Source of the DNA: Escherichia coli
Lineage (GTDB): Bacteria > Pseudomonadota > Gammaproteobacteria > Enterobacterales > Enterobacteriaceae
Length of the DNA stretch: 64,000 bases
Assembly (NCBI RefSeq): GCF_003790525.1
Contig: NZ_CP033635.1
Direction: 5' to 3' (one strand)
Shown: positions 9,621 to 24,626 of the stretch, piece after piece
Position numbering within the stretch: position 1 is the stretch's first letter
Layout: each line of letters starts with the position of its first letter
Translations under genes and position numbers: made by a program
The notes under the pieces: generated by a model
Told to the model about the DNA's origin: nothing
The model's database searches: none
Seen by the model: only the letters and a program-made list of their open reading frames with translations

Positions 9621-9929
9621 ATGAAAAAAGTATTAGCTCTGGTTGTTGCCGCTGCTATGGGTCTGTCTTCTGCCGCCTTTGCTGCAGAAACTGCGACCAC
9701 ACCTGCTCCGACTGCGACGACCACCAAAGCAGCGCCGGCGAAAACTACACATCATAAAAAACAGCATAAAGCAGCACCTGCCCAGAAAGCGCAGGCGGCT
9801 AAAAAGCATCATAAAAATGCGAAAGCTGAACAGAAAGCTCCTGAACAAAAAGCGCAGGCAGCGAAGAAACACGCCAAGAAACACAGCCATCAGCAACCGG
9901 CAAAACCTGCTGCACAACCCGCAGCGTAA
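9621..9929 (+). CDS. asr: Acid shock periplasmic protein
   Basis: 102 aa from [21 protein letters not shown]; Lys/Ala/His/Gln-rich repeats. Confidence 0.9.
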
Positions 9930-10021
9930 GTTTTCAACAGTAATGCTGGCGCGCCCCCTCGCGCCTGAAAATTACGGTGCTAAGCGGTTAACGTTTAGCA
10001 CCGCCTTTAGCGGAGGGTAGT

Positions 10022-12157: not shown

Positions 12158-12322
12158 ATGGCAAAGCCGATCATCACGCTCAATGGCCTAAAAATCGTCA
12201 TTATGTTGGGAATGCTGGTCATTATTCTCTGCGGTATCCGTTTTGCCGCCGAGATCATCGTGCCGTTTATTCTCGCATTATTTATTGCTGTTATATATAA
12301 CTTATTTCGCTTAACTAATTGA
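12158..12322 (+). pseudogene. tqsA: tqsA 5' fragment (AI-2 exporter). The first ~46 codons are native, then 8 island-encoded codons and a stop.
   Basis: [45 protein letters not shown] matches the remembered TqsA N-terminus. The frame leaves tqsA sequence at 12294/12295. Confidence 0.9.
12286..12294 (+). repeat. attL core (TGCTGTTAT)
   Basis: Identical 9-mer at 23720..23728. The two tqsA halves rejoin in frame across it (..[11 protein letters not shown]..). Confidence 0.8.
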
Positions 12323-12365: not shown

Positions 12366-12423
12366 AATTAACTACACCATTAACTACACCGTTCGGCGCA
12401 CTGTATGAAACAACGTGGAACAA
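12366..12423 (+). repeat. Arm module, left end: AATTAACTACACC ATTAACTACACC, then 19 nt, then ACAACGTGGAACAA
   Basis: The same two-part module recurs in the same orientation at 23567..23624, next to int. Probable arm-type Int/RDF binding sites. Confidence 0.6.
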
Positions 12424-13466
12424 ATAGACACAAGCGGCAGGCTATACCGTTATCATTTTTCAGCTATCCGTCATGAAGCTGGTGGATGATCACGGATAAC
12501 CAGGCATCTACAGCGCCTTAAAAAGCTGAACCCGACAAACATTTCTGCTTATCGGGTCCGATCGCTCTTTCTACTCGTGGCAGATGAGTTTACTAGGAAG
12601 GGGGGAACATTGTATCAGGCTATCCCCTTTCTGTGCTGATTCGGCTGGTGAATGATCTACTTGGGGCACTACACTTTTCGGATAGTGCGGGTATCCGGTT
12701 TTCTGCCTCATCGAATTTTAAGCCTTCTGACGGCCTGTATATCATTTCCTGTGGAGTTGCCGCCCTGATAGCGAATACTGCGGCAGCATGTGATTTACCC
12801 CCCGTTCTGTTGATGTTTGATGTGGCTGGTTGATGTGCTGCCATGTTTTCCGCCAATGGTGGAAAAGCCCACCAGCGCAACGCAGGACGCATAAAACCAT
12901 TGCGATGACTCTGGACGCAAAACCACGTTTAACGATGTTTTGCACTGAACCAGAATACTGTTCGTTTTTGTCTCGATGTCCGTACGTATTACGTCCGCAC
13001 CTAATCCGGCATCATGCCCACCAGCGTAACGCATTTTTTTAATTTCGTGGCTGTGCGTCCACCAGCTACGCCGGAATGGGGTATTCCGTTTCAACGGAAC
13101 AGGTATGACGAACATAATCGCACCTTCTCCCGAAAACGGTGCGACCTGCATCATCGAAATGGTGATTCAGCTACTCGGCGATTTTCACCATTCAGAATCT
13201 GGCGGGTGAGTTATCCAGCTTCCACCAATGGGGGATTCTGGAACAATCAACGGGTTACGCCTTATCAGCAAAAAAGCACATCAACTGTAAAGGAAATCGT
13301 TATGGTTGCTGGTGGGCTGCGTCACCATCATGGTGATGATGCTGTCCAGTCAGCCGGAACGGTTGAACAGGGTGGCTATGGGTCACTCTGTTGTGCGTTA
13401 TTTGCGTGATCCTGGTACGGGGTGACTATCTTTCAGATAGTCGGTTGCCTGGTTACACGAAAAAAT
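12424..13466. other. ORF-poor, Chi-rich segment at the integrase-distal end of the island
   Basis: Only short, mutually overlapping ORFs (131 aa or less) in all six frames. Five Chi octamers: + strand at 12478 and 13308; - strand at 12869, 13018 and 13059. 18-bp direct repeat GCCCACCAGCG(C/T)AACGCA at 12867 and 13016. Confidence 0.6.
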
Positions 13467-13838
13467 TTACTTCCTGCGTTTATCCTGCTTTGTATGCCCG
13501 TGCTGAATGCCCCGCAGTGGATCTTCTTTTTTCAGGTCGATCCCCATGTCCGTTAGTGTTTTTGTGGCGGCGGTTCTTATGGCACAAATCAGGTCTCTTT
13601 CCGGTTCCCGGGTTATGGTTGCCTTCCGGATGCATGCCGTTCGTCGTTCCGTTACATACTGACGCGCTTCATCACTTGCCGCCTGTTTCAGTAACTCACC
13701 CCAGCGATTAGCCGCCCGTCGCCATAAACCTTTCGCTTCCAGTTCTTCCGCTTTGTCATCATGCACCATAAGCATAATCCCATTGATACCTGTTAACTCT
13801 GAATGGTTGGTTTCTGTTCTTTTGATAATTTCCCGCAT
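13467..13838 (-). CDS. PerC-family transcriptional regulator (copy 2)
   Basis: Core MVHDDKAEELEAKGLWRRAANRWGELL is the PerC/Pch signature and parallels the paralog at 17352..17624. The internal ATG at 13769 (100 aa) may be the true start. Confidence 0.7.
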   Translation of the reverse strand: MREIIKRTETNHSELTGINGIMLMVHDDKAEELEAKGLWRRAANRWGELLKQAASDEARQYVTERRTACIRKATITREPERDLICAIRTAATKTLTDMGIDLKKEDPLRGIQHGHTKQDKRRK

Positions 13839-13840
13839 AG

Positions 13841-13872
13841 CTTATTGTATGACAGTACTGTCCCACAATAAG
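13841..13872. promoter_or_regulatory. 32-bp nested palindrome in the divergent perC2 / orf96 control region
   Basis: CTTATTGTatGACAGTACTGTCccACAATAAG. Overlaps the aaggag RBS of the 13884 ORF. Confidence 0.5.
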
Positions 13873-13883
13873 GAGTTGCACGC

Positions 13884-14174
13884 ATGAGAATGACTAGGCA
13901 CAAAAAACAGATTCTTGAACTCTACAAACCTGAGTATCGCGATTGGGTGCGGGTGGAGGCCGGAGATCCGCCTTTTGATGTTCGTGGTGTGACAGTGCTG
14001 CTCTATGGTTCCGAATATCGGCGATATCACATAGAGGCAACACGAAGGACGCTAAACGCTATGGTTCGTGATAAGTTGCTGGAGCGTGTGAAAGTCCGTG
14101 AGCCACGTTTTGATGTGCGTATTGGTGGCGATGGTGCGCATTGCACGGTAATCCGCTATGGCCTGGTAAGGTAA
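13884..14174 (+). CDS. Hypothetical protein, 96 aa (island cargo)
   Basis: ATG preceded by aaggag. No family recognised. Confidence 0.6.
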   Translation: MRMTRHKKQILELYKPEYRDWVRVEAGDPPFDVRGVTVLLYGSEYRRYHIEATRRTLNAMVRDKLLERVKVREPRFDVRIGGDGAHCTVIRYGLVR

Positions 14175-14204
14175 GCCATCGGGTAAATCAGATGATTAAA
14201 TCAC

Positions 14205-14226
14205 CAGAATGTAAATTTACATTCTG
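14205..14226. terminator. Perfect 22-bp palindrome between convergent ORFs
   Basis: cagaatgtaaatttacattctg. No clear T-tract. Confidence 0.4.
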
Positions 14227-14276
14227 CCAGCCACCAGCTACCCTCCTCAAAATTGAGGACCCTTTTTATCAACTGG

Positions 14277-14558
14277 TTACCGCCGCAACCGTTCCGGCTT
14301 CTTCCACTGATAAGTGTTTTTCGCGCTCTCCTGATACATCGCCACGCGTCGACGGTATGCCAGCAACTCTAGTACTCTGATTCGTATGTCGCGCATATCC
14401 ACGCCGTTAAGCTCAATACCATCACGGCGCATTACATCAGCAACAACACGCACATAATTTTCGGCGGTCACGCTGTCCGGCTGCGTGGCCTGTTCGTCAT
14501 GCTGCTGGCTGATTCCGGTAACGCGGCGGATTAATCCCAGTAGTTCGACTTCTGTCAT
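14277..14558 (-). CDS. Hypothetical protein, 93 aa
   Basis: Track ORF 14277..14756 runs through the cos/cosB DNA. The internal ATG at 14558 (MTEVELLGLIRRV...) lies just past cos copy 1. Confidence 0.55.
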   Translation of the reverse strand: MTEVELLGLIRRVTGISQQHDEQATQPDSVTAENYVRVVADVMRRDGIELNGVDMRDIRIRVLELLAYRRRVAMYQESAKNTYQWKKPERLRR

Positions 14559-14591
14559 TGTGCCCCCATCGCTCTGATAGTCTGGTGTCGT

Positions 14592-14656
14592 CGGGTCCTT
14601 TCCGGCATGTGGACCCGTTACGGGGCGTCGACCTCGCGCGTTTTCACTATTTATGA
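14592..14656 (+). other. Lambda-like cosQ-cosN, copy 1; predicted 12-nt cohesive end GGGCGTCGACCT at 14623..14634
   Basis: GGGTCCTTTCCGG..CCGTTACGGGGCGTCGACCTCGCGCGTTTTCACTATTTATGA closely parallels my recollection of lambda cos (..GGGTCCTTTCCGGTGATCCGACAGGTTACGGGGCGGCGACCTCGCGGGTTTTCGCTATTTATGAAAA). Confidence 0.8.
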
Positions 14657-14672
14657 AAATTTTTCGGGATCC

Positions 14673-14769
14673 ATGTCCGGTTTCTCTGCAAGTTAACCAT
14701 ATGAAAAATATAAAAACATGCTTTCCATGAACCGGACATGCGCAAAAAACAGACACTAAAACCGGACAT
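14673..14769 (+). repeat. cosB-like array: three AACCGGACAT sites (14673..14682 inverted, 14730..14739, 14760..14769) around an A/T-rich spacer
   Basis: Position just after cosN, and the one-inverted plus two-direct layout, mimic lambda R3-I1-R2-R1 with a different site sequence. Confidence 0.6.
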
Positions 14770-14837
14770 CGAACCAGTTAACCGAAAGTGTGCACAAATC
14801 ACATTCATTGCTGCGAGTGATTAACAAGTTATCGGCT

Positions 14838-15272
14838 TTACTGTTCTGTATCGGCTGATTGCTCCATGCTGGCACGGCGAACGCTTACGGCATGACGCCA
14901 CCCAGCCAGAAAGCCAGCCATTTTATTTCGTGCCTTGCTCACATCTTCCGGTGAATAGCCGTAAATATGCAAACCTTCATCAAATCGATGTTCTGTTTCT
15001 TCACTGGAGTACTCGTCACGCTCAGATGAAAGCAGCCTCGCAAACATAATTTTTTCCAGCGCACTGGTTTCTACGTGATATCCGATGGTCTGAAGATGGC
15101 TTTTACCTGAATACCAAAGCAATGTATGCCCGATGTGATAACCGCCAGACTTTCCGCGATCCGCATTAAGATACGGCATCCCCTGTTTGGTCCATGCGCG
15201 AATAGTGGTTCTGTTAACCTTGAAATGTTCAGCTATTTCCTGCTGACTTACAAAACAAGCTTTATCAATCAT
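14838..15272 (-). CDS. Nu1-like small terminase / packaging-specificity protein (N-terminal wHTH)
   Basis: VSQQEIAEHFKVNRTTIRAWTKQGMPYL aligns by eye with lambda Nu1 VNKKQLADIFGASIRTIQNWQEQGMPVL. Starts 67 nt downstream of cos copy 2, the lambda cos-Nu1 arrangement. The C-terminal half is not recognisably Nu1-like. Confidence 0.75.
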   Translation of the reverse strand: MIDKACFVSQQEIAEHFKVNRTTIRAWTKQGMPYLNADRGKSGGYHIGHTLLWYSGKSHLQTIGYHVETSALEKIMFARLLSSERDEYSSEETEHRFDEGLHIYGYSPEDVSKARNKMAGFLAGWRHAVSVRRASMEQSADTEQ

Positions 15273-15339
15273 AATGTTACCTTAACTGCATGGTTAAATA
15301 TCAATCAAGTGGTGGTGGTGTCACCTTCACGGAAAAACG

Positions 15340-15404
15340 TCATAAATAGCGAAAACGTGCGAGGTCGACGCCCCGTAACGGGTCCACATGCCGGAAAGGA
15401 CCCG
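15340..15404 (-). other. Lambda-like cosQ-cosN, copy 2 (inverted); cohesive-end sequence at 15362..15373
   Basis: Reverse complement of 14592..14656 with 2 mismatches in 65 nt. No AACCGGACAT sites between it and the Nu1-like start. Confidence 0.8.
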
Positions 15405-15429
15405 CAAAAAAAGCCGGATTTCTCCGGCC
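15405..15429 (-). terminator. Rho-independent terminator after the capsid operon
   Basis: Minus strand reads GCCGGA-gaaa-TCCGGC followed by TTTTTTT. Nearly identical hairpin at 17322..17345. Confidence 0.7.
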
Positions 15430-15502
15430 TTGTCTCAGATGGTTTTCAGTATGCGATAGATGTCGCCGTCATCGCCCTGGTTTGTGCCATCGTTCCCCCT
15501 GC

Positions 15503-15838
15503 TTATCGGGCCAGCGGCTGAACGGATACGCCGGAACCCGCAAAGGCGGCGCATTTTTTCGCATCGGTGTCGACGCTCTCAGGCCAGTTAACGGCGGCAA
15601 TATTGAATATCCCCGTCTTGTAACACTGTGCTGATTTCTGCTTTGACGTGTCCACAGGGTACGAGGTCAGATAAACAGCCTTGCCAGATTCCTTACCATC
15701 CCACGCCTTAAACTCGCCATTGTCTGCCAGCATCAGCGGGGTAAATTCCTGAATAACGCCAGCATCAGCGGCAAAATGTACCAGCGTCGTGGATACCTGT
15801 TGGCTGCCTGAAAATAACTCAATGTATGGAGCGTCCAT
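15503..15838 (-). CDS. Head decoration protein (lambda gpD-like)
   Basis: 111 aa. TPLMLADNGEFKAWDG and AAFAGSGVSV parallel gpD TPLMLDTSSRKLVAWDG and TAFAGTAISIV. Confidence 0.8.
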   Translation of the reverse strand: MDAPYIELFSGSQQVSTTLVHFAADAGVIQEFTPLMLADNGEFKAWDGKESGKAVYLTSYPVDTSKQKSAQCYKTGIFNIAAVNWPESVDTDAKKCAAFAGSGVSVQPLAR

Positions 15839-15849
15839 AGAATCCCCCG

Positions 15850-16905
15850 TTAAGCAATTTTGACGGTAACAAATTTGCGAATATCTGCCGGTACAGGCTG
15901 CGGTGCGCTGTGCGTCTGCACGTACTCAATCGCCGGATCGCCGTCCTCAATCCAGTTTTTCGGGTAGTACATGTTTTGCGTTGCGCCCGTTCTTACCGCT
16001 TCCTGATCCATAATCGCACCATATGCCACCAGCCCTTTATTGTTGGTGTTACCCAGGACCAGCAAATCAGGCTCAAGGAAATATTTTTCGGTCCCGTCGC
16101 TGTCAGTGTATTTGCCGGAATAGACGATAAGGGCCAGATCACCAAGATAGCCTTTAAAGCTCACCACTTCGCCCAGGTTTTTACAGGCCAGCTCGGCGGC
16201 GGATTCTGATCCACGGGAAAGATCGTACAGTTCACGGAATTTTTTAAAGCTGCGTAATGTGCGCCATACCTCACCGCCCATAATCATGACGTTGGCGGGG
16301 CAACCTGCCTGATCAGCATAAAGCTCGATGTCATAGATTGGGTCGTGCATGTCTTTATCCTGCTGGGACCATTTTTTACCACTGGCCTGCTGTATGATGC
16401 AGTTTTCCGGTATTTTCCAGTCGATTTCATAGCGTTCTATGCCTTCGCCCTCAATGATGTTTTTTCCGGTCGTTACCGCATTCACCGCCAGCCATTCCAC
16501 GCGCGCCTTAATGGCGTTTATCTGGCGGCGCATGTTGCCAGTAATCAGGCGCATACGGCGGTAAGTTGGATCGTTAAGCTGTGCCGGATCTTCTCCATCC
16601 ATGCGCATGATGGTCTTTGTTGGATCGATTTCGTGCTTTGGCTTCATGTAGCCTGGTTTAATCGTGCTGGTTTCGTACCCTTTATCGCGCTGGACCTGAC
16701 TACCCACCATAGGAGAACAGAACGCTGACATCGTAACCTCTTCAATGTCCAGGGTGTCCAGCATGATGTTTTGGGTGTTGAAGGTCGCCACGTTCGGGAA
16801 AAACAGCGTGGTAAACAGCGGACTAAATTTATATTCCGAAATATCCCCGCGATTCAGGTACGCGAAAAGCTGGTTAGTTGTAAGTGCCTTTGCTTTGCCT
16901 GTCAT
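15850..16905 (-). CDS. Major capsid protein (lambda gpE family)
   Basis: 351 aa. PGYMKPKHEIDP and YYPKNWIEDGDPA parallel gpE PGYVKPKHEVNP and RYPKNWVTTGDPA. Confidence 0.9.
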   Translation of the reverse strand: MTGKAKALTTNQLFAYLNRGDISEYKFSPLFTTLFFPNVATFNTQNIMLDTLDIEEVTMSAFCSPMVGSQVQRDKGYETSTIKPGYMKPKHEIDPTKTIMRMDGEDPAQLNDPTYRRMRLITGNMRRQINAIKARVEWLAVNAVTTGKNIIEGEGIERYEIDWKIPENCIIQQASGKKWSQQDKDMHDPIYDIELYADQAGCPANVMIMGGEVWRTLRSFKKFRELYDLSRGSESAAELACKNLGEVVSFKGYLGDLALIVYSGKYTDSDGTEKYFLEPDLLVLGNTNNKGLVAYGAIMDQEAVRTGATQNMYYPKNWIEDGDPAIEYVQTHSAPQPVPADIRKFVTVKIA

Positions 16906-17111
16906 TATTCACCTCCGTGAACCTGATTGATACCCAGCGCCGCACGCAAATAGGTGCGCACCTGCCAGCCTGTTGACGGCTCAACCATCGCCAGCGGATC
17001 AAGTCCTGCCGCAATGCCTGCTTTTACATTCTGCTGGTGGCGTTCCTTGAGCGCCTCCACGATGTCGGGGCTTATGTAGACCGTCACCCCGCCTTTTTTC
17101 TCTTCTGCCAT
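16905..17111 (-). CDS. Hypothetical 68-aa protein, first gene of the capsid operon
   Basis: Stop overlaps the MCP start (TAATG). aagaggaa RBS. Confidence 0.6.
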   Translation of the reverse strand: MAEEKKGGVTVYISPDIVEALKERHQQNVKAGIAAGLDPLAMVEPSTGWQVRTYLRAALGINQVHGGE

Positions 17112-17145
17112 AGTCAGAAATTCCTCTTTGACTTAAAAAATCATA

Positions 17146-17195
17146 ACTGGATGTTCATCCAGTCCTGATTATAATCATGATTGCATTTTGCGCAA
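17146..17195 (-). promoter_or_regulatory. Candidate sigma70 promoter of the capsid operon with an overlapping 18-bp palindrome (CTG-N10-CAG)
   Basis: Minus strand: TTGCGC (17195..17190), 16 nt, TATAAT (17173..17168), then ACTGGATGAACATCCAGT (17163..17146). Confidence 0.5.
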
Positions 17196-17321
17196 CAATA
17201 TTGAGTTACGTTGCAAATTATGAAATGATTATCCCGATCATGTGTGTCAGTTCACCATAAAAAACCTCGTATACAAAAGCCCCATAAGCCCCCTGTGACC
17301 TTATCGGGCTTTTTTTAGGCG

Positions 17322-17345
17322 TAAAAAAGCCGGATTGCTCCGGCT
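17322..17345 (-). terminator. Rho-independent terminator after perC copy 1
   Basis: Minus strand reads AGCCGGA-gcaa-TCCGGCT followed by TTTTTT. A plus-strand hairpin with a T-run sits back-to-back at 17286..17317. Confidence 0.7.
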
Positions 17346-17351
17346 GTGTGC

Positions 17352-17624
17352 TCACTTCTGCGGGTAGTTGCGCCATATTGCTTTGCCAATACCAGCTATC
17401 CCCATTTGTTTTTCAGTGCGATTAACTGACCTTTTCAGAGCGCCTAAATCATCCGGCGGCTCCGGTGGCCTCTGTGCCTTACGGATACATTCCGCGCGAC
17501 GCATTGCCACCTGTTCGCGCTCCTTGTCTGTCTCCACCAGCCTCATAACTTCACCCCATCGCGCCGCCGCCCTCCGGTAAAAGCCTTTTGCCTCGAGTTC
17601 CTCCGCTATGCGGTCATGTACCAT
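17352..17624 (-). CDS. PerC-family transcriptional regulator (copy 1)
   Basis: 90 aa from MVHDRIAEELEAKGFYRRAAARWGEVM. Start is 11 nt after the ssb stop with a ggggg RBS. Track ORF 17352..17744 overlaps ssb. Confidence 0.75.
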   Translation of the reverse strand: MVHDRIAEELEAKGFYRRAAARWGEVMRLVETDKEREQVAMRRAECIRKAQRPPEPPDDLGALKRSVNRTEKQMGIAGIGKAIWRNYPQK

Positions 17625-17634
17625 CGTCACCCCC

Positions 17635-18045
17635 TCAGAACGGAATATCATCACCGTAAGGGTCATCGCCTCCCGCTGGTGGCTGATTACCCTGTGTGCC
17701 TGTGGTTTTGCGTCTGTTCCCGCCAGGACGTGCCGCACGGGCACTGATTACGCTGTCTGCAATAACCTGCCAGCCCTGCCGCGTTTCCCCGTTCTGTCCG
17801 GTCCACTGGCTGACCTGCATCGTGCCGGATACGCTGGCAACGTCGCCTTTTTGATGTTTAGCCAGAAAGTCGGCCTGTTTGCCAAATGCGATGACCGATA
17901 ACCATAACGTCGCCTGTCCGTCCTGTGCCTGGCCGCATGGTAAAGATACCGCCATACGCGCCAGCGTCATCGGTGTACCCTTACTGGTCTGTTTTACCTG
18001 CGGGTCGTCCACCAGCCGCCCGTAAGCTGCTATCTGTGCTGTCAT
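17635..18045 (-). CDS. ssb: Single-stranded DNA-binding protein
   Basis: 136 aa with an OB-fold N-terminus, a Gly/Pro/Gln linker and the acidic tail DDIPF. Confidence 0.85.
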   Translation of the reverse strand: MTAQIAAYGRLVDDPQVKQTSKGTPMTLARMAVSLPCGQAQDGQATLWLSVIAFGKQADFLAKHQKGDVASVSGTMQVSQWTGQNGETRQGWQVIADSVISARAARPGGNRRKTTGTQGNQPPAGGDDPYGDDIPF

Positions 18046-18284
18046 GCTGTCTGCTCTCCGGTTTTAACGTTGATGGTTGTTACCTGTTCTGCTTCGGCAA
18101 TATCCCGCTCTGTCAGCGTGGCAAAGTTTGCCGCCGTCGTTGTCATGAATGCGCTTATCAGTTCGGGATGTGCTTTCGCGTATCCTTCCCCTGTGTTGCG
18201 GTCGATGATTTTTATCGCCACCCTCAGCCAGTGCTCTGTAAGGTCAATGGCGCGGTGATCTGTCTTTTTGTGGCTTACCTTCAT
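18042..18284 (-). CDS. Hypothetical protein, 80 aa
   Basis: ATGA overlap with the ssb start. No family recognised. Confidence 0.6.
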   Translation of the reverse strand: MKVSHKKTDHRAIDLTEHWLRVAIKIIDRNTGEGYAKAHPELISAFMTTTAANFATLTERDIAEAEQVTTINVKTGEQTA

Positions 18285-18287
18285 GAT

Positions 18288-18656
18288 TTACTCCAGAGTA
18301 CCGCTATTGCTGCTGTCGTTAACCGGATACCAGGCAAATACCATCGATTCACCACAGTGAACAAACTTCTTATCCGGCAGATAAAGGCACTCGCACATTC
18401 CCTCATCAGGACTATGCGGACTCATGCCCAGCTCACTGGTCAGCACGGGTAAGATTTCGCGGCAGGTGTTCCCCGCACCGAAATAATCAACCTCACAAAG
18501 CGCCCATGCAGCAATCGGGCTGTACCATTCCGTGCCGTCGTCGTCTTTGAACTTAGCCCACCAGCCAGGAAGGGCAGTTGATATGCTCAGTGTTTCAATT
18601 TCAGTGTTCATAAATTTACCTTCGGTATTTTGTCCTGCTGTTCGATTTTTATTCAT
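18288..18656 (-). CDS. Hypothetical protein, 122 aa (alternative start at 18611)
   Basis: First gene downstream of the iteron region. No family recognised. Confidence 0.6.
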   Translation of the reverse strand: MNKNRTAGQNTEGKFMNTEIETLSISTALPGWWAKFKDDDGTEWYSPIAAWALCEVDYFGAGNTCREILPVLTSELGMSPHSPDEGMCECLYLPDKKFVHCGESMVFAWYPVNDSSNSGTLE

Positions 18657-18660
18657 TGCT

Positions 18661-18860
18661 CACCATCTCTCACTTTTACTACTCACTTTTTAAAGCGTCT
18701 CGCTTCGTCTCACTTGAGATTTTTGTGTTTTGTATGTGCATGTTTCATAAGTGTTTTTTCACTGCTCACTTTTGAGCATGTATACAGGTGAGAAAGTGAG
18801 TAATTGTGTTAATATTTTGTAAAAACCTCACCATTACTCACTTTTACTACTCACTTTTTA
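18661..18860. repeat. Putative origin of replication: CTCACTT iterons flanking an A/T-rich core
   Basis: CTCACTT at 18669, 18682, 18709, 18765, 18837 and 18850, with an inverted copy at 18794. 32-bp direct repeat at 18661..18692 and 18829..18860. Immediately 3' of the initiator gene. Confidence 0.7.
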
Positions 18861-20264
18861 CAGTGGTCCTACATCATCACCATCAATGTAAATCACGGCG
18901 TCTTTTTCCAGTTTGGCTAACCATCGCCGCATATTTTTCACGTCATACCCAAGCCGTTTCATGTCATCACGTAACAGCGGGATCGTGCACTTGTCGCCGT
19001 TCTGTGTGCGTGAACGGATGCACCCCCATAGCGCGGTATGGTTTTCCGTCTTGTTGCCTGCCTCCTCGATGCGCTCCAGTTCAGCAGGGGCGCGGGGAAC
19101 GTCAATCACCACCATGGACACAATTTCTTCGCCATCTGTATCGGTGAACACCTCCACGCTTTTAAGGTCGTATGCACTCTCTTTTGGCTCCTCTGCGTCC
19201 TTCATCTTCGTACACGCCGCAACCAGTGCTGTAACGTCTGAATTTTCCCTGCTGATTCGGTACTCTGCATCAAGCGCGGCACGGAATGCACTGGAACCAC
19301 GCGCCCCCTTTGTTTCATCCTTGCCGGAATGGTGAACCACCAGCACCGTGGCCCCTGTGGCCTGCTTTATCGCGTCACACCCCTGGATAAATGCGCCCAT
19401 ATCACGGGAATCATTTTCATCATTCCCACCAAAGCAACGGGCCAGCGTGTCGATCACAATCAGCCGCACATTTTCGCCCGTTCTGCTCTTAACAAGTCCG
19501 GCAGTCCTGATAACCTGCTCCACATAGTCAGGCGATGCAGGGAAAACAGGCGCGTTAATGATGCACAAATCTGTAACCACCTTGTCGTGGGTTATCTCCC
19601 ACGCCTTAACGCGGCGTTTTACGCCCATGCTGCCTTCACCAGCGATATAGATAACCGCACCCTTACTTACCCTGCGGCCTCCCCATGCCATACCTGTGGC
19701 AACATGGCACGACCAGGAAATGGCGAGGAACGATTTATAAGAACCGCTGGCCCCGTAGGTGCTGCATAATGACTCAGCCGGAATAAGCCCCTTAATGACG
19801 TAGCTTTGCTGCGCATCGAATCCCTCAGAACCCCATGAGATGGGAAGTGTGATTTTTCGCTTTCCGCCATTCATGACCAGGCTTTCCCCTCTCTCCCATG
19901 TTTCCCGTAGTCGTGGTAGCTGGTCGCTCCAGTCCTCCAGCAGTTCGAAATTTTCAGAAAGTAGCCGCGCCTCCTGGACTCCGGCGATCGCCAGTTTTGT
20001 GGCAATGGTCAGCATCTGCATATCGTCCAGGTTTCCGGCGCGTATGACCTTTACCCTGTATCGTCCTTCATCAACAATCTGTAAGTTGTCCAGTTCGCTT
20101 AACTGATAACGGCCCAGATAAACCGGAGGGATGGGATCGCCTGCTTTTTTGGCCTGTGCAATCATGTAATGTTCTGCAAAGGAGTGAGCATTATCACCCG
20201 CAAAAATAACCGCCTCAGTGTGTTTATCTTTCGGTAACAGTTTTACGTTCGGTGCAAGTTTCAT
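18858..20264 (-). CDS. Replication initiator, RecA/DnaB-like (AAA_25-type) ATPase with a C-terminal wHTH; Pri-Rep analogue
   Basis: 468 aa. Walker A GASGSYKS, Walker B LIVIDTLARCF, VLVVHHSGKDETKGARGSSA. Confidence 0.8.
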   Translation of the reverse strand: MKLAPNVKLLPKDKHTEAVIFAGDNAHSFAEHYMIAQAKKAGDPIPPVYLGRYQLSELDNLQIVDEGRYRVKVIRAGNLDDMQMLTIATKLAIAGVQEARLLSENFELLEDWSDQLPRLRETWERGESLVMNGGKRKITLPISWGSEGFDAQQSYVIKGLIPAESLCSTYGASGSYKSFLAISWSCHVATGMAWGGRRVSKGAVIYIAGEGSMGVKRRVKAWEITHDKVVTDLCIINAPVFPASPDYVEQVIRTAGLVKSRTGENVRLIVIDTLARCFGGNDENDSRDMGAFIQGCDAIKQATGATVLVVHHSGKDETKGARGSSAFRAALDAEYRISRENSDVTALVAACTKMKDAEEPKESAYDLKSVEVFTDTDGEEIVSMVVIDVPRAPAELERIEEAGNKTENHTALWGCIRSRTQNGDKCTIPLLRDDMKRLGYDVKNMRRWLAKLEKDAVIYIDGDDVGPL

Positions 20265-20548
20265 TTCTTACCCCCTGCGACCAGCATTTCACGGATTTTG
20301 CGGATATAACTTGCAGCACGTTTCTGATTAACGGCTTTACGATGGCCCACCAGCGTGAAATCACGCCGGAACTGATAAACAGGCATAACGCAGTCATATT
20401 CGTAGCCTTCACGGCGGTAAGTGATGCGACGTTCCTCCACGCCCTTAATCATTACCGTGCCGCCGTAGTTATCACGGAAAATATCGCCGGGACGGATTTC
20501 AGGACGAGCGGGGCCGCTGGCATTAACGCCAGAATTTTTATTTTTCAT
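20261..20548 (-). CDS. Small conserved phage/satellite protein (DUF4222-like by recollection)
   Basis: 95 aa. ATGA overlap with the initiator start. Confidence 0.6.
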   Translation of the reverse strand: MKNKNSGVNASGPARPEIRPGDIFRDNYGGTVMIKGVEERRITYRREGYEYDCVMPVYQFRRDFTLVGHRKAVNQKRAASYIRKIREMLVAGGKK

Positions 20549-20553
20549 GTTTT

Positions 20554-20781
20554 TTATTCTCCGGTGTGCTGTTCTTTATATCTGTCGTGAATTGCCATCA
20601 CTGTATTTAATTCATTAATAACAGCCGTTAATAGCGTACGCACGGCAGAAAACATCATTGAATCAGATTCATCGCCACTTTCCTGCACATCAATTAAATT
20701 AAGTAGTAATGCGTCCATTTCCTTTGCGCGGATTAATGCCTTTTCACAATGAAAAATAACACCAAAGGGTATTTTATTCAT
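20554..20781 (-). CDS. Hypothetical protein, 75 aa
   Basis: ATG at 20781 overlaps the icd-like stop (ATGAATAA). Track ORF starts 14 codons earlier. Confidence 0.55.
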   Translation of the reverse strand: MNKIPFGVIFHCEKALIRAKEMDALLLNLIDVQESGDESDSMMFSAVRTLLTAVINELNTVMAIHDRYKEQHTGE

Positions 20782-20971
20782 GACTCCCCTCCTGACGGAT
20801 ACGGGCGGCGAATACAGCGACACAACCGGACGGGCAACGGTTACGCGCTTCGCGTTCCGTCCAGGCGGTCACGTGGATAATTTGAGATTCTCCGGCACTC
20901 AGTGCCAGAAAACGCCACACAAAGGCGGTTTGTGTGTGCGCTAGTCGTGGGGTATGCTGTGTTCCAGCCAT
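20774..20971 (-). CDS. Icd-like (P4 host cell-division inhibitor-like) protein, 65 aa
   Basis: MAGTQHTPRLAHTQTAFVWRFLALSAGESQIIHVTAWTEREARNRC..VFAARIRQEG fits the remembered Icd-like pattern. aggag RBS. It forms the C-terminal part of the implausible 308-aa track ORF. Confidence 0.65.
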   Translation of the reverse strand: MAGTQHTPRLAHTQTAFVWRFLALSAGESQIIHVTAWTEREARNRCPSGCVAVFAARIRQEGSHE

Positions 20972-21056
20972 AATCGTTACTCCTGTTAACGGTTTGGTTA
21001 GACGCCCTGCATGTGTTACAGCACTGCGGGGCGTTGTCTTTTTAACGGCTTTCGTG

Positions 21057-21104
21057 ATAGGGTGTACACCTATCAAGCAAAAACATAACGCTATAGGTGT
21101 ACAC
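21057..21104. promoter_or_regulatory. Operator-like sites sharing TAGGTGTACAC in the divergent icd / RHH control region
   Basis: ATAGGGTGTACACCTAT (21057..21073, near-palindrome) and ATAGGTGTACAC (21093..21104, abutting the RHH ATG). The minus-strand TTGACA hexamer overlaps the RHH start. Confidence 0.5.
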
Positions 21105-21299
21105 ATGTCAACAGTTATTAAGCGAGATAAAAAACCAAAGGGAACAGGAAAAGCCCCCCCATTCCATATGCGAATAGCTCCAGAACTGAAAGAGCAGTTT
21201 GATAATGAGGCCAGCAATGATGGGGTAAGCCTAGCCAACTGGCTTAAAGAGTTGGGGCGCGCCGAACTAAAGCGACGCGGCATTGAACCTAAAGGCTGA
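21105..21299 (+). CDS. Ribbon-helix-helix (Arc/CopG/HicB-antitoxin-like) DNA-binding protein, 64 aa
   Basis: FHMRIAPELKEQFDNEASNDGVSLANWLKELGRAELKR is a typical RHH fold signature. Opposite strand to the rest of the island. Confidence 0.7.
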   Translation: MSTVIKRDKKPKGTGKAPPFHMRIAPELKEQFDNEASNDGVSLANWLKELGRAELKRRGIEPKG

Positions 21300-21302
21300 T
21301 GT

Positions 21303-21428
21303 ATGACTGAAAAGCAGACCGATAACAAACTTTCTCTACCAGAGAATAAACCAGCAGGCTTCTTACCAAGAAAAATCCTTGATGAGATCAAACGCCGCCA
21401 GCGCCGCAAGGCCAAAGAGCAGGAATAG
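21303..21428 (+). CDS. 41-aa basic micro-protein, co-oriented with the RHH gene
   Basis: ATG 4 nt after the RHH stop. MTEKQTDNKLSLPENKPAGFLPRKILDEIKRRQRRKAKEQE. Followed by a terminator. Confidence 0.4.
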   Translation: MTEKQTDNKLSLPENKPAGFLPRKILDEIKRRQRRKAKEQE

Positions 21429-21459
21429 CCCACCAGCAAGCCAGCACACTGATCACATT

Positions 21460-21488
21460 GGCCACCGTGACAGGTGGCCTTTTCTTTG
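21460..21488 (+). terminator. Rho-independent terminator of the RHH operon
   Basis: GGCCACC-gtgaca-GGTGGCC followed by TTTTCTTT. Confidence 0.7.
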
Positions 21489-21540
21489 CCCGTTATCCGG
21501 CAATTGTGGCGCTTCGCCACACGGTTGATATAATTCCCCT

Positions 21541-21611
21541 GCTCAGATTCATTTTTTGCGCGGCAGGTAAATTGTTCAGAAAGGCGGCTCCTTATCGGGG
21601 CCGCTTTTTTT
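21541..21611 (+). ncRNA. Candidate ~70-nt small RNA, antisense to the alpA-to-icd leader
   Basis: Extended -10 TGaTATAAT at 21526..21534. Hairpin plus T7 terminator at 21580..21611. No ORF. Confidence 0.3.
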
Positions 21612-21752
21612 ATGTCTGAAAAACCGCGATTTTGTTGTTTTTCAGTTTCACCAGGCCGAACGAAGCCCCGCCCATGTTCGGGCGTATATCCAGTCTTCAT
21701 GGTTAAATCTCTGTATTAGTGGATGGGTGGCGGCTGTGTGCCGCCAGTCTTT

Positions 21753-21941
21753 TTAGTGAACTGCCTCGCAGCTTTCCTTCCATGCCAGAACTTCGGATAA
21801 AGACCAGCCAACGGAACGACCGCCCAGCTTACGCCGTGATGGGAATTGTCCGGCCTTTTCCAGGCGGTAGCGGCATGAGCGGCTAAGGCCTGTTAGCTTT
21901 TCGCATTCTTTTTCACGTATAAAGCGATCAGTGCTTAACAC
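21753..21941 (-). CDS. alpA: AlpA-family (MerR-like HTH) phage regulatory / excision-control protein
   Basis: 62 aa, GTG start. REKECEKLTGLSRSCRYRLEKAGQFPSRRKLGGRSVGWSLSEVLAW is the AlpA signature. Confidence 0.8.
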   Translation of the reverse strand: MLSTDRFIREKECEKLTGLSRSCRYRLEKAGQFPSRRKLGGRSVGWSLSEVLAWKESCEAVH

Positions 21942-22100
21942 TATTGCCCCCTTTCGTTTCTTAAAGAGTTATTTCGTGTTCTATTGCGTTGGGATGTGTC
22001 TGATTGTGTCAGGGTGATTCAGAGTTGGCAAATGTTGGTGGCGGGTATTTTACAGAAACGGGGTGATTTTAATAAAAATCATTTTAATTCAGTATTATGC

Positions 22101-22133
22101 AAAGGCATAAAATCTCGTTTTATGCCTTTTTTC
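22101..22133 (+). terminator. Strong hairpin plus T-run in the int-alpA spacer
   Basis: AAAGGCATAAAA-tctcg-TTTTATGCCTTT followed by TTT. Confidence 0.55.
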
Positions 22134-22233
22134 TCACTATTTAAAGCGTTATTCGCTAATGTATAAAAAACCAGTTGAGCATTAAAAATCAGCAACTTAT
22201 AAATCTGTATACTTTTTGACCTCTTGTTCGTGG

Positions 22234-22267
22234 TTGTTTCACGTTGTTGTGTATTGTTGCACGTTGT
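22234..22267 (-). repeat. Two more ACAACGTGNAACAA motifs (22234..22247 and 22254..22267), 20 bp apart
   Basis: Same 14-mer as in both arm modules (12410 and 23611), here in the opposite orientation just downstream of int. Confidence 0.5.
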
Positions 22268-22315
22268 ATCTGTGCACTTATCCAGTATGCGCATACTGAA
22301 AAAACACGAAAAAAA

Positions 22316-23566
22316 TTATTTTCTTCTGGCTACTGGTAGCGTGGTTACGTTTTCATGTGCTCCCGCCAGTATCTCCAACCGCTCCACCCACATATCCAGC
22401 GCATTGCGTTTCGCATCCAGATAACGGGAATGATTATAAACTCGCTGCATTCCTGGCATCTGGTGGCCTGTAAGCTGCTCCACGACGTGAGGATCCACGC
22501 CTAAATCGTTCAGCATCGTTGTAAAGGTGCGCCGGATGTCATGCAGTGACCATTGAGGGTGTTTTAGCCTCCTGTGCGCTAATCTGCCGTACTGCGATAC
22601 GCTGGCCTCCTGTTTCACTTCCCCCAGTAATAAGCCCGTGTGCCTGTTCTGCTCCACCAGCCGCGTGACGAACGGCAGGATCGCTTCCGGTATGGGCCGG
22701 AATATTGCGACCTTCGTTTTGCTGTGCTCCTTCGGAACGGTCCAGAGCATTTCCGTGAAATCCCACTCCCCGATCTCCGATAACCTCAGTTCTACCGTCC
22801 TGGCTCCGAAGACAATCAGGAGGCGGATTAGTGCGACGTAGTAAGGGGAAAATATTTTTTTGTCCAGTGCCTGCAATAATTCGCCCAGTTCTTTGGTGCT
22901 TAAGACACGTTCGCTTATATCCGGTTTTTTCCCAACGTCCGCCACGTTCAGATCGTCCAGAACGTTGCTGATTGCATAGCGCCGCCTCCGGCAAAACTTA
23001 AGCGCCTGTTTGCACGCCTGTAGCACGAATCCGGCAGTAACAGGCGTTCGCTTTGCCACCCGATCAAAACAGGCCAGCCAGTGCCGTAGCTCGCATTTAT
23101 CCAGCGGCATAGCACCAATGTGCTGTATTACGTGATTATTAAGTCGCCTTTTCAGGGCGATATAATCCACGCGGTTTTCCTTTACGTAAGACTCAAGCCA
23201 GTAGGTGAGCGCATCTCCAACCGTTACAGGCTTTAACGCTTCCTGCATGGTGTAATTCATCTCATGACGTGGATTTTTCCCCTCAGCCAGCCATGCGCGA
23301 CACTGGGCGGCTTTTTCCCTGGCTGATTTCAGGCTCAGATCAGGATAATTTCCCAGCTTAATACGTTCCGGTCGTGTCTCTCTTCCCGTTCCGGCCCTGT
23401 AAGTGAAATACCAGGTTAAAAGGCCGCTGGTTGAATGCCTGACGCTCAGATTTCCACCGTCATTAAGAAAGGCTGTTTTTTGGGCGGGTGTGCCGTTGAT
23501 TTTCCTTAGCTGTGTATCGCTCAGCTTGTTAAGTGCTCTGGTCATAATTTTGAATCCGGTCATCAC
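22316..23566 (-). CDS. int: Tyrosine recombinase, P4-type integrase (N-terminal arm-binding domain plus catalytic domain)
   Basis: 416 aa. LSDTQLRK N-terminus, catalytic HDIRRTF...GHQ..MQRVYNHSRY. Alternative start at 23545. Confidence 0.9.
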   Translation of the reverse strand: MMTGFKIMTRALNKLSDTQLRKINGTPAQKTAFLNDGGNLSVRHSTSGLLTWYFTYRAGTGRETRPERIKLGNYPDLSLKSAREKAAQCRAWLAEGKNPRHEMNYTMQEALKPVTVGDALTYWLESYVKENRVDYIALKRRLNNHVIQHIGAMPLDKCELRHWLACFDRVAKRTPVTAGFVLQACKQALKFCRRRRYAISNVLDDLNVADVGKKPDISERVLSTKELGELLQALDKKIFSPYYVALIRLLIVFGARTVELRLSEIGEWDFTEMLWTVPKEHSKTKVAIFRPIPEAILPFVTRLVEQNRHTGLLLGEVKQEASVSQYGRLAHRRLKHPQWSLHDIRRTFTTMLNDLGVDPHVVEQLTGHQMPGMQRVYNHSRYLDAKRNALDMWVERLEILAGAHENVTTLPVARRK

Positions 23567-23624
23567 AATTAACTACACCATTAACTACACCGATCGTTGC
23601 ACAAAGGGCTACAACGTGAAACAA
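23567..23624 (+). repeat. Arm module, right end (AATTAACTACACCATTAACTACACC, then 19 nt, then ACAACGTGAAACAA)
   Basis: Begins 1 nt upstream of the int start codon. Direct repeat of 12366..12423. Confidence 0.6.
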
Positions 23625-23719
23625 GCTGGAACAAGAAAAATCACAAATTTGTTTATAATCAAAAACATAATGCACAACCTGAAACATTATGAAACGGCAA
23701 AAAACACTAATTGATAAAG

Positions 23720-23728: not shown

Positions 23729-24626
23729 TCTTAACCCGCTGGTGCAACACATGGTCCGCTGGCGAGTGCCGCGTGTACTGGCGGTGTCGATTTTGATGAC
23801 CATCATCGTGATGGCGATGGTGTTGCTGTTAGCTTATCTGGGTTCCGCGCTCAACGAGTTGACGCGGACGTTACCGCAATATCGCAACTCTATTATGACG
23901 CCGCTGCAAGCGATTGAACCGTTGTTGCAACGCGTAGGGATTGATGTCTCAGTTGACCAACTGGCGCATTACATTGATCCGAACGCGGCAATGACGTTGC
24001 TCACCAACTTATTGACGCAGTTATCTAATGCCATGTCATCAATCTTTTTATTGCTGCTGACGGTGCTGTTTATGTTGCTCGAAGTGCCACAATTGCCCGG
24101 AAAATTTCAGCAAATGATGGTGCGTCCGGTTGAAGGGATGGCGGCGATTCAGCGTGCGATTGACAGTGTGTCTCATTATCTGGTGCTGAAAACAGCCATC
24201 AGCATCATCACCGGCCTGGTCGCCTGGGCGATGCTCGCCGCACTCGATGTTCGCTTCGCTTTTGTCTGGGGATTGCTGGCCTTTGCGCTTAATTACATCC
24301 CTAATATTGGTTCAGTTCTCGCGGCAATCCCCCCTATCGCTCAGGTACTGGTGTTTAATGGCTTCTACGAAGCGTTGCTGGTGCTGGCGGGATATCTGCT
24401 AATTAATCTGGTCTTCGGCAATATTCTGGAGCCGCGCATCATGGGACGTGGGCTGGGGCTTTCCACATTGGTGGTATTTTTGTCGTTGATTTTTTGGGGA
24501 TGGTTGTTAGGACCGGTGGGTATGCTGCTTTCCGTGCCGTTAACAATTATTGTCAAAATTGCGCTTGAACAAACAACGGGAGGTCAAAGCATCGCCGTTC
24601 TGTTAAGCGATCTCAACAAAGAGTGA
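23720..24626 (+). pseudogene. tqsA: tqsA 3' fragment (codons ~44 to the end). A 294-aa ORF from GTG 23742 stays open.
   Basis: ..[26 protein letters not shown].. continues the remembered TqsA sequence. In-frame TAA at 23715. Confidence 0.9.

Follow-up and report, generated by a model that had tools for sequence, protein, structure and literature searches.

Two PerC-family genes of different origin on a phage-inducible chromosomal island in Escherichia coli tqsA

Why should a single phage satellite carry two genes of the same regulator family? The question is raised by a 64-kb stretch of Escherichia coli DNA (contig NZ_CP033635.1; the window, by which we mean the whole stretch), in which an earlier, sequence-only reading had pointed to two open reading frames (ORFs) of the PerC/Pch family and proposed that they were duplicated copies that could control the capsid operon, host or helper promoters, or both. 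PerC and Pch proteins let mobile elements rewire the virulence, adhesion and motility regulons of their hosts, and PerC homologs have been reported on phage-inducible chromosomal islands (PICIs) since 2018 (PMC6092414), with variable effects on LEE, the enterocyte-effacement locus (PMC11773190, PMC3378721). Here we show that an EcCI042/EcCICFT073-type PICI, integrated in tqsA, occupies positions 12366–23635 of the window and carries two PerC genes of different origin. The account that we favour, probable although with considerable room for error, is that one gene is of the PchE type and the other a recombined gene gated by an adjacent winged-helix protein. The two PerC genes are:

13467..13769, minus strand: PerC#1, 100 aa, start MVHDD, a member of a rare separate PerC clade (Pfam PerC, RefSeq start, neighbour-joining tree)
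17352..17624, minus strand: PerC#2, 90 aa, an ortholog of PchE (group 3) (Pfam, identity, synteny, neighbour-joining tree)

Profile searches placed both ORFs in the PerC family, as had been proposed. Against Pfam PerC (PF06069, a model of about 90 residues with a gathering cut-off of 22.6 bits), PerC#1, searched as ORF 13467..13838, scored 81 bits (E = 7.6e-23, model positions 1–82 of 90) and PerC#2 scored 134.6 bits (E = 1.5e-39, model positions 1–89 of 90), both far above the cut-off, and a scan of the 64-kb window with a PerC hidden Markov model built for this analysis returned just these two ORFs. Their lengths of 100 and 90 aa agree with the roughly 90–105 aa of stand-alone family members, and the N-terminal core A-x-x-LE-x-x-G-x-[YW]-RRAA-x-RW aligns with PerC of enteropathogenic E. 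coli (EPEC), PchA, PchD and PchE. The core common to the pair (MVHDDKAEELEAKGLWRRAANRWGE versus MVHDRIAEELEAKGFYRRAAARWGE) is as quoted in the sequence-only reading, and its estimate of 40–45% identity matches the 42% that we obtained over the whole alignment; BLASTP gave 51% identity over 77 aa (E = 4e-23). A PDB search for a structural relative of PerC found none.

The idea of duplication fared less well. In a neighbour-joining tree, which was computed with no bootstrap and in which only groupings with close relatives are firm, PerC#2 clustered with PchE and the PerC of EcCI042, and PerC#1 formed its own clade with four database proteins (P0003, P0006, P0008 and P0009). Over all 90 aa, PerC#2 shares 74% identity with the PchE of Sakai (ECs_1588). 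PerC#1, at 44% identity to PchE, 32% to PchD, 29% to PchA and 33% to EPEC PerC, is close to none of PchE, PchD and PchA, and the more distant members of its clade (62–86% identity) are full-length ORFs with a PerC domain. The supposed duplicates therefore sit in separate PerC clades and were brought together by module exchange. Taking the group definitions from PMC6265319 and PMC7369912, this placement confirmed the link of PerC#2 to PchE and removed its analogy with the LEE activators of group 1: the LEE activation that had been expected of Pch/PerC proteins holds for group 1 only, and PerC#2 is a group 3 ortholog, PchE having little effect on LEE (PMC6265319, PMC7369912).

The ORF first drawn for PerC#1 opens at an ATG at 13838 and would encode 123 aa; we rejected this start, as the ATG lacks a ribosome-binding site (RBS) and two related islands, L008 and L009, have ATA in its place. 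RefSeq starts the identical gene at 13769, and the ATG at that position is almost certainly the real start.

PerC#1 DNA was present in 55 of 5426 complete E. coli genomes, in 46 of these as a unit with the divergent gene for a 96-aa protein that adjoins it. We inspected six distinct islands bearing PerC#1. They occupy three att sites (tqsA; tRNA-Pro/yejM-yejO; clpS-cspD) and differ in replicase (RepA helicase, DUF927 or primase) and in packaging module. Nucleotide identity across the six was 98.7–100% for PerC#1, compared with 77–98% for the 96-aa gene and 77–99.6% for a 94-aa gene beyond it; the PerC#1 ORF was intact in every copy, and its protein was identical or differed by one residue. Near-identity of PerC#1 beside more diverged neighbours argues for a recombined module and against duplication in situ. 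The block of high identity begins 45–125 bp past the PerC#1 stop (13342/13423) and extends to a palindrome on the far side of the gene, and such a sharp block points to a recently spread recombination cassette rather than to duplication within the island. The comparison shows a nearly invariant PerC#1 segment of about 0.5 kb that, judged by its identity pattern, reached the integrase-distal end of three or more different PICI backbones by recombination. Against L004, L005, L007, L008 and L009 the discontinuity in identity lies at window positions 13342–13880, with a breakpoint near the dyad of the palindrome, which suggests recombination at a conserved operator.

What lies beyond PerC#1 differs from island to island: the window has two unassigned ORFs, L008 has a Panacea-domain pair, and L048/L049 have HigBA and TerS together with a type I restriction-modification system, all co-oriented with PerC. 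PerC#1 thus stands at the head of a variable cargo slot, just outside the 96-aa gene and the 32-bp palindrome. A PchE-type gene follows ssb in three of the six islands (window, STEC379 and CFIAFB20180511) and is missing from the other three, so the two PerC positions are independent modules. A tblastn search with PerC#1 brought up relatives on 214 plasmid records, compared with just 2 among 50,697 records of phage genomes. As far as one divergent query can reach, the family thus looks more like a plasmid and island trait than a free-phage trait. Group-1 pch genes do occur in integrated lambdoid prophages, for example Sakai Sp4.

PerC#2 has a different setting, on the replication side of the island:

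17635..18284, minus strand: ssb (17635–18045) and an 80-aa gene (18042–18284) (Pfam SSB, 3.7e-16; phrog_1231)
17328..17345, minus strand: intrinsic terminator of the ssb-perC unit, AGCCGGAGCAATCCGGCT followed by TTTTTT (terminator scan)

The description of PerC#2 as ending the replication operon proved accurate. The gene starts 10 nt past the ssb stop codon with the RBS GAGGGGG, closes the replication-side transcription unit and has the terminator behind it; a GC-rich hairpin with a T-run after perC is kept in 042, Sakai and STEC379. Its upstream partners, ssb and the 80-aa gene, are homologs of ECs1587 and ECs1586, and PerC#2 is accordingly the last member of a small-ORF/ssb/perC unit downstream of the replication origin in an island with a P4-type integrase. 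Many islands of E. coli and of other enterobacteria keep a perC gene in this place, behind the 80-aa gene and ssb, and PchE-type DNA homologs were found in 1277 of 5426 E. coli genomes, at up to six places per genome. In O157 the pchE transcript start has been mapped just upstream of ECs1586, yielding a tricistronic ECs1586-ssb-pchE RNA (Andreozzi and Uhlich; PMC7369912). Expression there is basal and falls upon SOS or prophage induction, and PchE represses csgD and curli, strongly induces flagella and has little effect on LEE (PMC6265319, PMC7369912). By analogy, the integrated island would express PerC#2 at a basal level, and the protein would retune host surface regulons, with curli down and flagella up.

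The palindrome and the divergent 96-aa ORF, both picked out by the sequence-only reading, are real, and PerC#1 does sit next to them at the cargo end:

13884..14174, plus strand: wHTH96, a 96-aa winged-helix protein and putative repressor for the adjacent operator, with an AAGGAG RBS
13841..13872, no strand: operator-like inverted repeat CTTAWTGTA-N14-YACAWTAAG (palindrome I12)

The 96-aa protein had no match in Pfam, PHROGs, PADLOC or the PDB. AlphaFold2 run on a shallow, E. coli-only alignment returned an unusable model (pLDDT, the predicted local distance difference test, 45) and was redone with distant homologs; the predicted fold is that of a winged helix. An exhaustive profile search gathered 57 representatives, and a scan of species-representative genomes across Enterobacterales yielded 33 homolog loci (L010–L042) in Buttiauxella, Enterobacter, Klebsiella, Erwinia, Serratia, Proteus, Providencia, Yersinia, Hafnia and other genera. 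At least 13 of the 33 (those where the flank suffices) have PICI core genes inward on the opposite strand (PerC-ssb, DUF4222, AlpA or int), and in several loci chromosomal genes such as fis lie just outside the homolog, so wHTH96 is the terminal gene of these islands. A PerC gene adjoins it in the E. coli cassettes only, and 46 of the 48 E. coli genomes with wHTH96 also carry the PerC#1 cassette.

The palindrome has overlapping arms of 19 nt that are 89% complementary and occurs once in the window, where 0.2 matches would be expected by chance. In the form CTTAWTGTA-N14-YACAWTAAGGA the dyad precedes the ATG of every wHTH96 homolog in these loci by 11–14 nt, the sequence further upstream being unrelated; when 933 kb were searched, 80 of 80 matches to the motif lay directly upstream of a homolog. 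A half-site of the dyad reads CTTATTGTA. In Providencia sp. Me31A (L033, about 9865–9990) the dyad stands in two tandem copies upstream of the winged-helix homolog.

In the window this putative operator lies within the 114-bp divergent region that wHTH96 shares with PerC#1, and wHTH96 may therefore plausibly control PerC#1. The anatomy would have PerC#1 transcribed from that region, its expression probably gated by wHTH96, and would direct its action to host or cargo promoters and not to the capsid operon. Like other Pch/PerC proteins, both PerC#1 and PerC#2 may act as small modulators of H-NS-bound promoters; the group-1 Pch proteins work by altering H-NS nucleoprotein complexes, that is, by anti-silencing (PMC4764244).

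Several observations weigh against an island with a PchE-type gene and a wHTH96-gated PerC#1. A consensus scan of 13770–13884 found no sigma-70-type promoter, and the PerC#1 RBS is weak; the expression of PerC#1, like the binding of wHTH96 to the palindrome, is putative. Outside E. coli the wHTH96 homologs have no adjacent PerC, so the pairing may be incidental. Anti-silencing has been established for group-1 Pch proteins only, and the PchE phenotypes come largely from over-expression on plasmids. Finally, the island is not AT-rich (GC 0.45–0.59 in most 400-nt intervals) and holds no obvious H-NS target; as composition does not support the island genes as AT-rich H-NS targets, we do not propose that the island relieves its own silencing.

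The same facts feed the alternative that fares best, in which PerC#1 would be redundant, without a function of its own, and would merely travel with the island end that bears wHTH96 as a hitch-hiker. Its rarity (55 of 5426 genomes), its poor RBS and missing predicted promoter, and the homologs of other genera that do without it would all fit. We nevertheless consider this unlikely: an ORF kept intact in every copy, with at most one residue of difference among six islands, does not look like passive cargo, nor do the full-length PerC domains of clade members at 62–86% identity, and the cassette accompanies wHTH96 in 46 of 48 E. coli genomes.

The next question is whether the PerC proteins act on the island's own packaging genes. 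The relevant features are:

15503..17111, minus strand: capsid operon, comprising a 68-aa gene, a lambda gpE-like major capsid gene and a gpD-like decoration gene (Pfam Phage_cap_E, 2.1e-49; HDPD, 4e-17)
17145..17195, minus strand: promoter-like site of the capsid operon, TTGCGC-17-TATAAT, then the palindrome ACTGGATGAACATCCAGT (CTG-N10-CAG) (read from sequence)

One or both PerC proteins could, in the manner of P4 Delta, be late activators of this operon or of helper late promoters after induction. PerC#2, co-transcribed with the replication genes, has the capsid operon immediately downstream of it, and the promoter region holds a conserved palindrome that some regulator must bind, the arrangement TTGCRY-17-TATAAT followed by ACTGGATRAACATCCAGT being kept in four islands. 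The distribution of the genes makes such a role quite improbable. The module that a PchE-type gene precedes is a lambda gpE/gpD-type operon in the window and 042, but in Sakai Sp7 it is a capsid-forming module of HK97 type and in STEC379 one with TerS only, and we sought but did not find a promoter or operator motif shared downstream of the PchE-type genes in these islands with unlike packaging modules. Conversely, in 042 the same operon is accompanied by PchE alone, in GB089 (where operon and promoter are the same) by PerC#1 alone and in the window by both, and 06-00048 has PerC#1 only with a related, more diverged gpE/gpD operon and a different upstream region. EcCI042 thus has the operon and no PerC#1, GB089 and 06-00048 have gpE/gpD-type operons and no PchE-type gene, and pchE expression drops on SOS or prophage induction (PMC6265319). 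The control of the capsid promoter by PerC suggested in the sequence-only reading accordingly finds no support.

The promoter itself speaks for a different kind of control. Its hexamers are already near consensus and, together with the CTG-N10-CAG dyad, suggest repression rather than activation. The dyad resembles a LexA box, and the packaging operon may by analogy be under LexA/SOS control. LexA control of operon I of the Staphylococcus aureus pathogenicity islands (SaPIs) provides the model.

The operator reading of the other palindrome, at 13841..13872, must be set against an RNA or DNA hairpin that either sequesters the RBS for translational control or terminates transcription. The right arm does end in AAGGA, the wHTH96 RBS, and a stem of −13.9 kcal/mol can form. 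The arms do not co-vary, however: 80.2% of cells were paired compared with 80.4% after shuffling (covariation score 0.041 versus 0.039), and one pair was broken in 11 of 29 sequences and compensated in none. The RNA fold was unexceptional (z = −0.87; 41 of 200 shuffles folded equally well or better), and no T-run follows the stem. On the covariation and fold statistics we rejected the RNA hairpin, which we regard as very unlikely. What is conserved in the dyad ahead of this winged-helix gene is its sequence and not its pairing, and it is best read as a putative operator of wHTH96, belonging to the 96-aa gene and not to PerC.

That wHTH96 together with PerC#1 makes up a toxin-antitoxin or anti-phage defence module of two genes in a cargo hotspot is, despite the Panacea pair (L008) and the HigBA and type I restriction-modification systems (L048/L049) in the slot of relatives, highly improbable, given that PADLOC matches neither protein, that wHTH96 stands alone in 33 loci of other genera and that PerC-family proteins are known as transcription modulators (PMC4764244).

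Returning to an island with a PchE-type gene and a recombined, wHTH96-gated PerC#1, a bolder version can be sketched, which we hold only tentatively and think rather doubtful. wHTH96 and its dyad would be an undescribed control module at the integrase-distal ends of PICI-like satellites throughout Enterobacterales that in E. coli has captured a fourth type of PerC anti-silencer, PerC#1, and gates it. The island would then have two PerC outputs on different schedules, a constitutive PchE-like one directed at host motility and curli and a switchable one directed at cargo or defence genes or at host H-NS-bound loci.

The remaining features of the island are as follows:

12366..12434, no strand: left att direct repeat (repeat family D2, paired with 23567–23635), inside the disrupted tqsA
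23567..23635, no strand: right att direct repeat (repeat family D2)
22316..23566, minus strand: P4-type tyrosine integrase (Pfam Arm-DNA-bind_3 and Phage_integrase)
21753..21941, minus strand: AlpA-family regulator (Pfam Phage_AlpA, 5e-18)
18858..20548, minus strand: RepA-type helicase (AAA_25) and DUF4222/RgdR-family gene (Pfam; DUF4222 60% identical to RgdR ECs_1581)
18659..18866, no strand: iteron-like direct repeats (families D5 and D8, 37 nt and 17 nt, spacing 83–168 nt)
14592–14669 and 15327–15404, no strand: cos-like 78-nt inverted repeats (inverted repeat I1, 91% complementary)
14838–15272, minus strand: 144-aa Nu1-like helix-turn-helix (HTH) gene between the cos-like repeats (TerS PHROG, 1.1e-8; weak Phage_Nu1)
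14277..14561, minus strand: conserved 94-aa terminal PICI gene, function unassigned (phrog_1561, PHROG match 1.4e-54)
12795..13115, minus strand: 106-aa cargo ORF (hypothetical protein in RefSeq)

The assignment of both PerC genes to a phage satellite is borne out by the integrase, AlpA, DUF4222, RepA-type helicase, SSB, gpE and gpD homologs, cos-like site and att repeats. At 11.2 kb the island falls within the 10–15 kb or so of PICIs, with an att direct repeat on each side (69 nt each, identical over the first 26 nt) and the integrase at one end. On the minus strand, from right to left, the order is integrase, AlpA, Icd-like and small ORFs, DUF4222, AAA_25 helicase, iterons, a 107-aa ORF, the 80-aa ORF, SSB, PerC#2, terminator, promoter-like site, capsid operon, Nu1-like HTH gene and 94-aa gene; beyond this lie the 96-aa ORF (plus strand), PerC#1 (minus strand) and two small ORFs of unassigned function, of which the 106-aa ORF gave zero matches in Pfam, PHROGs and PADLOC. 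AlpA, the AAA_25 helicase, SSB and the iterons are PICI genes and features, and the iteron-like repeats just downstream of the RepA helicase gene are the probable replication origin. As in PICIs, tail and lysis genes are absent, the structural genes being limited to the gpE/gpD homologs and the small Nu1-like HTH gene. The 94-aa gene shares 78% identity with ECs_1599, the gene that closes Sakai Sp7.

Of 5426 complete E. coli genomes, only 3 contained 80% or more of precisely this island, and 1932 contained parts of it. The CM2 island, otherwise 99% identical, has about 317 bp more than the window in the interval from the DUF4222 gene to alpA (window about 20550–21750), the difference being an indel in the Icd/HicB-like region. 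The 5′ fragment of tqsA, the gene of the autoinducer-2 exporter, ends near 12322, and RefSeq annotates the gene as split: in the near-identical CM2 island both fragments, 12158–12322 and 23742–24626, are partial. As the insertion splits tqsA, strains with the present island or EcCI042 probably lack TqsA.

The DUF4222 protein (20261–20548, minus strand) has PGD in place of the RGD motif of RgdR (ECs_1581), a type III secretion regulator of O-island 51 (OI-51); the RGD motif was reported as required for activation of type III secretion. We considered and rejected the 96-aa and 94-aa ORFs as RgdR (Flockhart 2012), whose counterpart is the DUF4222 gene. The inverted cos-like pair is also found in EcCI042 (L002) and GB089 (L009) and is missing from L003, a relative with TerS; 92 records of lambdoid phages match the region, which is only suggestive of helper-dependent packaging. 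The weak HTH match of the 144-aa protein was the sole PADLOC result among the cargo genes tested.

A literature search of incomplete coverage, and hence weak as evidence, returned no earlier description of a PICI with two PerC types, nor any of the PerC#1 clade or the winged-helix/dyad module. The two-PerC case is real but mostly ordinary, a modest extension of known facts as a bare observation; the winged-helix/operator unit, which lies partly outside what the sequence-only reading had claimed, is the most novel element and the better lead. PchE-type DNA occurs in about a quarter of complete E. coli genomes, and a PICI that stacks two PerC types that are not redundant, of which one spreads between island backbones as a near-invariant cassette, would, if the account is true, add detail to the influence of satellites on host phenotype. 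As a unit conserved at the ends of satellites across many genera, the winged-helix gene with its putative operator is unannotated and directly testable.

Among known systems, the closest counterpart of PerC#2 is PchE (ECs_1588) of the capsid-forming PICI Sakai Sp7/O-island 51 (EcCIEDL933), a group 3 protein encoded at the same position after an 80-aa gene and ssb and ahead of the same type of terminator. The packaging genes there are a full HK97-type capsid-forming set and those of the window are of the lambda gpE/gpD type; the C-terminal 30 residues of the two proteins diverge, and the PerC#2 allele is known from sequence alone. PerC of the EPEC EAF plasmid and PchA/B/C of lambdoid prophages of enterohaemorrhagic E. 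coli (EHEC), all of group 1, belong to the same Pfam family and share the N-terminal core motif with the window proteins, at 29–33% identity to PerC#1 and 43% to PerC#2. LEE1 is activated by the group 1 proteins through relief of its silencing by H-NS (PMC4764244), whereas group 3 has little effect on LEE (PMC6265319). To the ArsR/MarR-type winged-helix repressors with palindromic operators, wHTH96 has no sequence similarity detectable through Pfam or the PDB; the conserved half-sites of the dyad lie 23 bp apart centre to centre, wider than in typical MarR sites, and wHTH96 has no ligand or sensing domain. EcCIMP1_025 of the PICI EcCIMP1 is, by its description in the parts of the account available to us (PMC11773190), likewise a PICI-borne PerC-family accessory regulator; it represses LEE1 in C. 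rodentium, and those parts mention no second PerC copy. EcCI042, which like EcCICFT073 is a Gram-negative PICI (Fillol-Salom et al. 2018; PMC6092414), lacks the 1.9-kb end of the window island, on which wHTH96 and its putative operator, PerC#1 and both small cargo ORFs lie, and shares with it the tqsA att site, the gene order, the capsid and decoration homologs and the cos-like repeats (PMC6092414).

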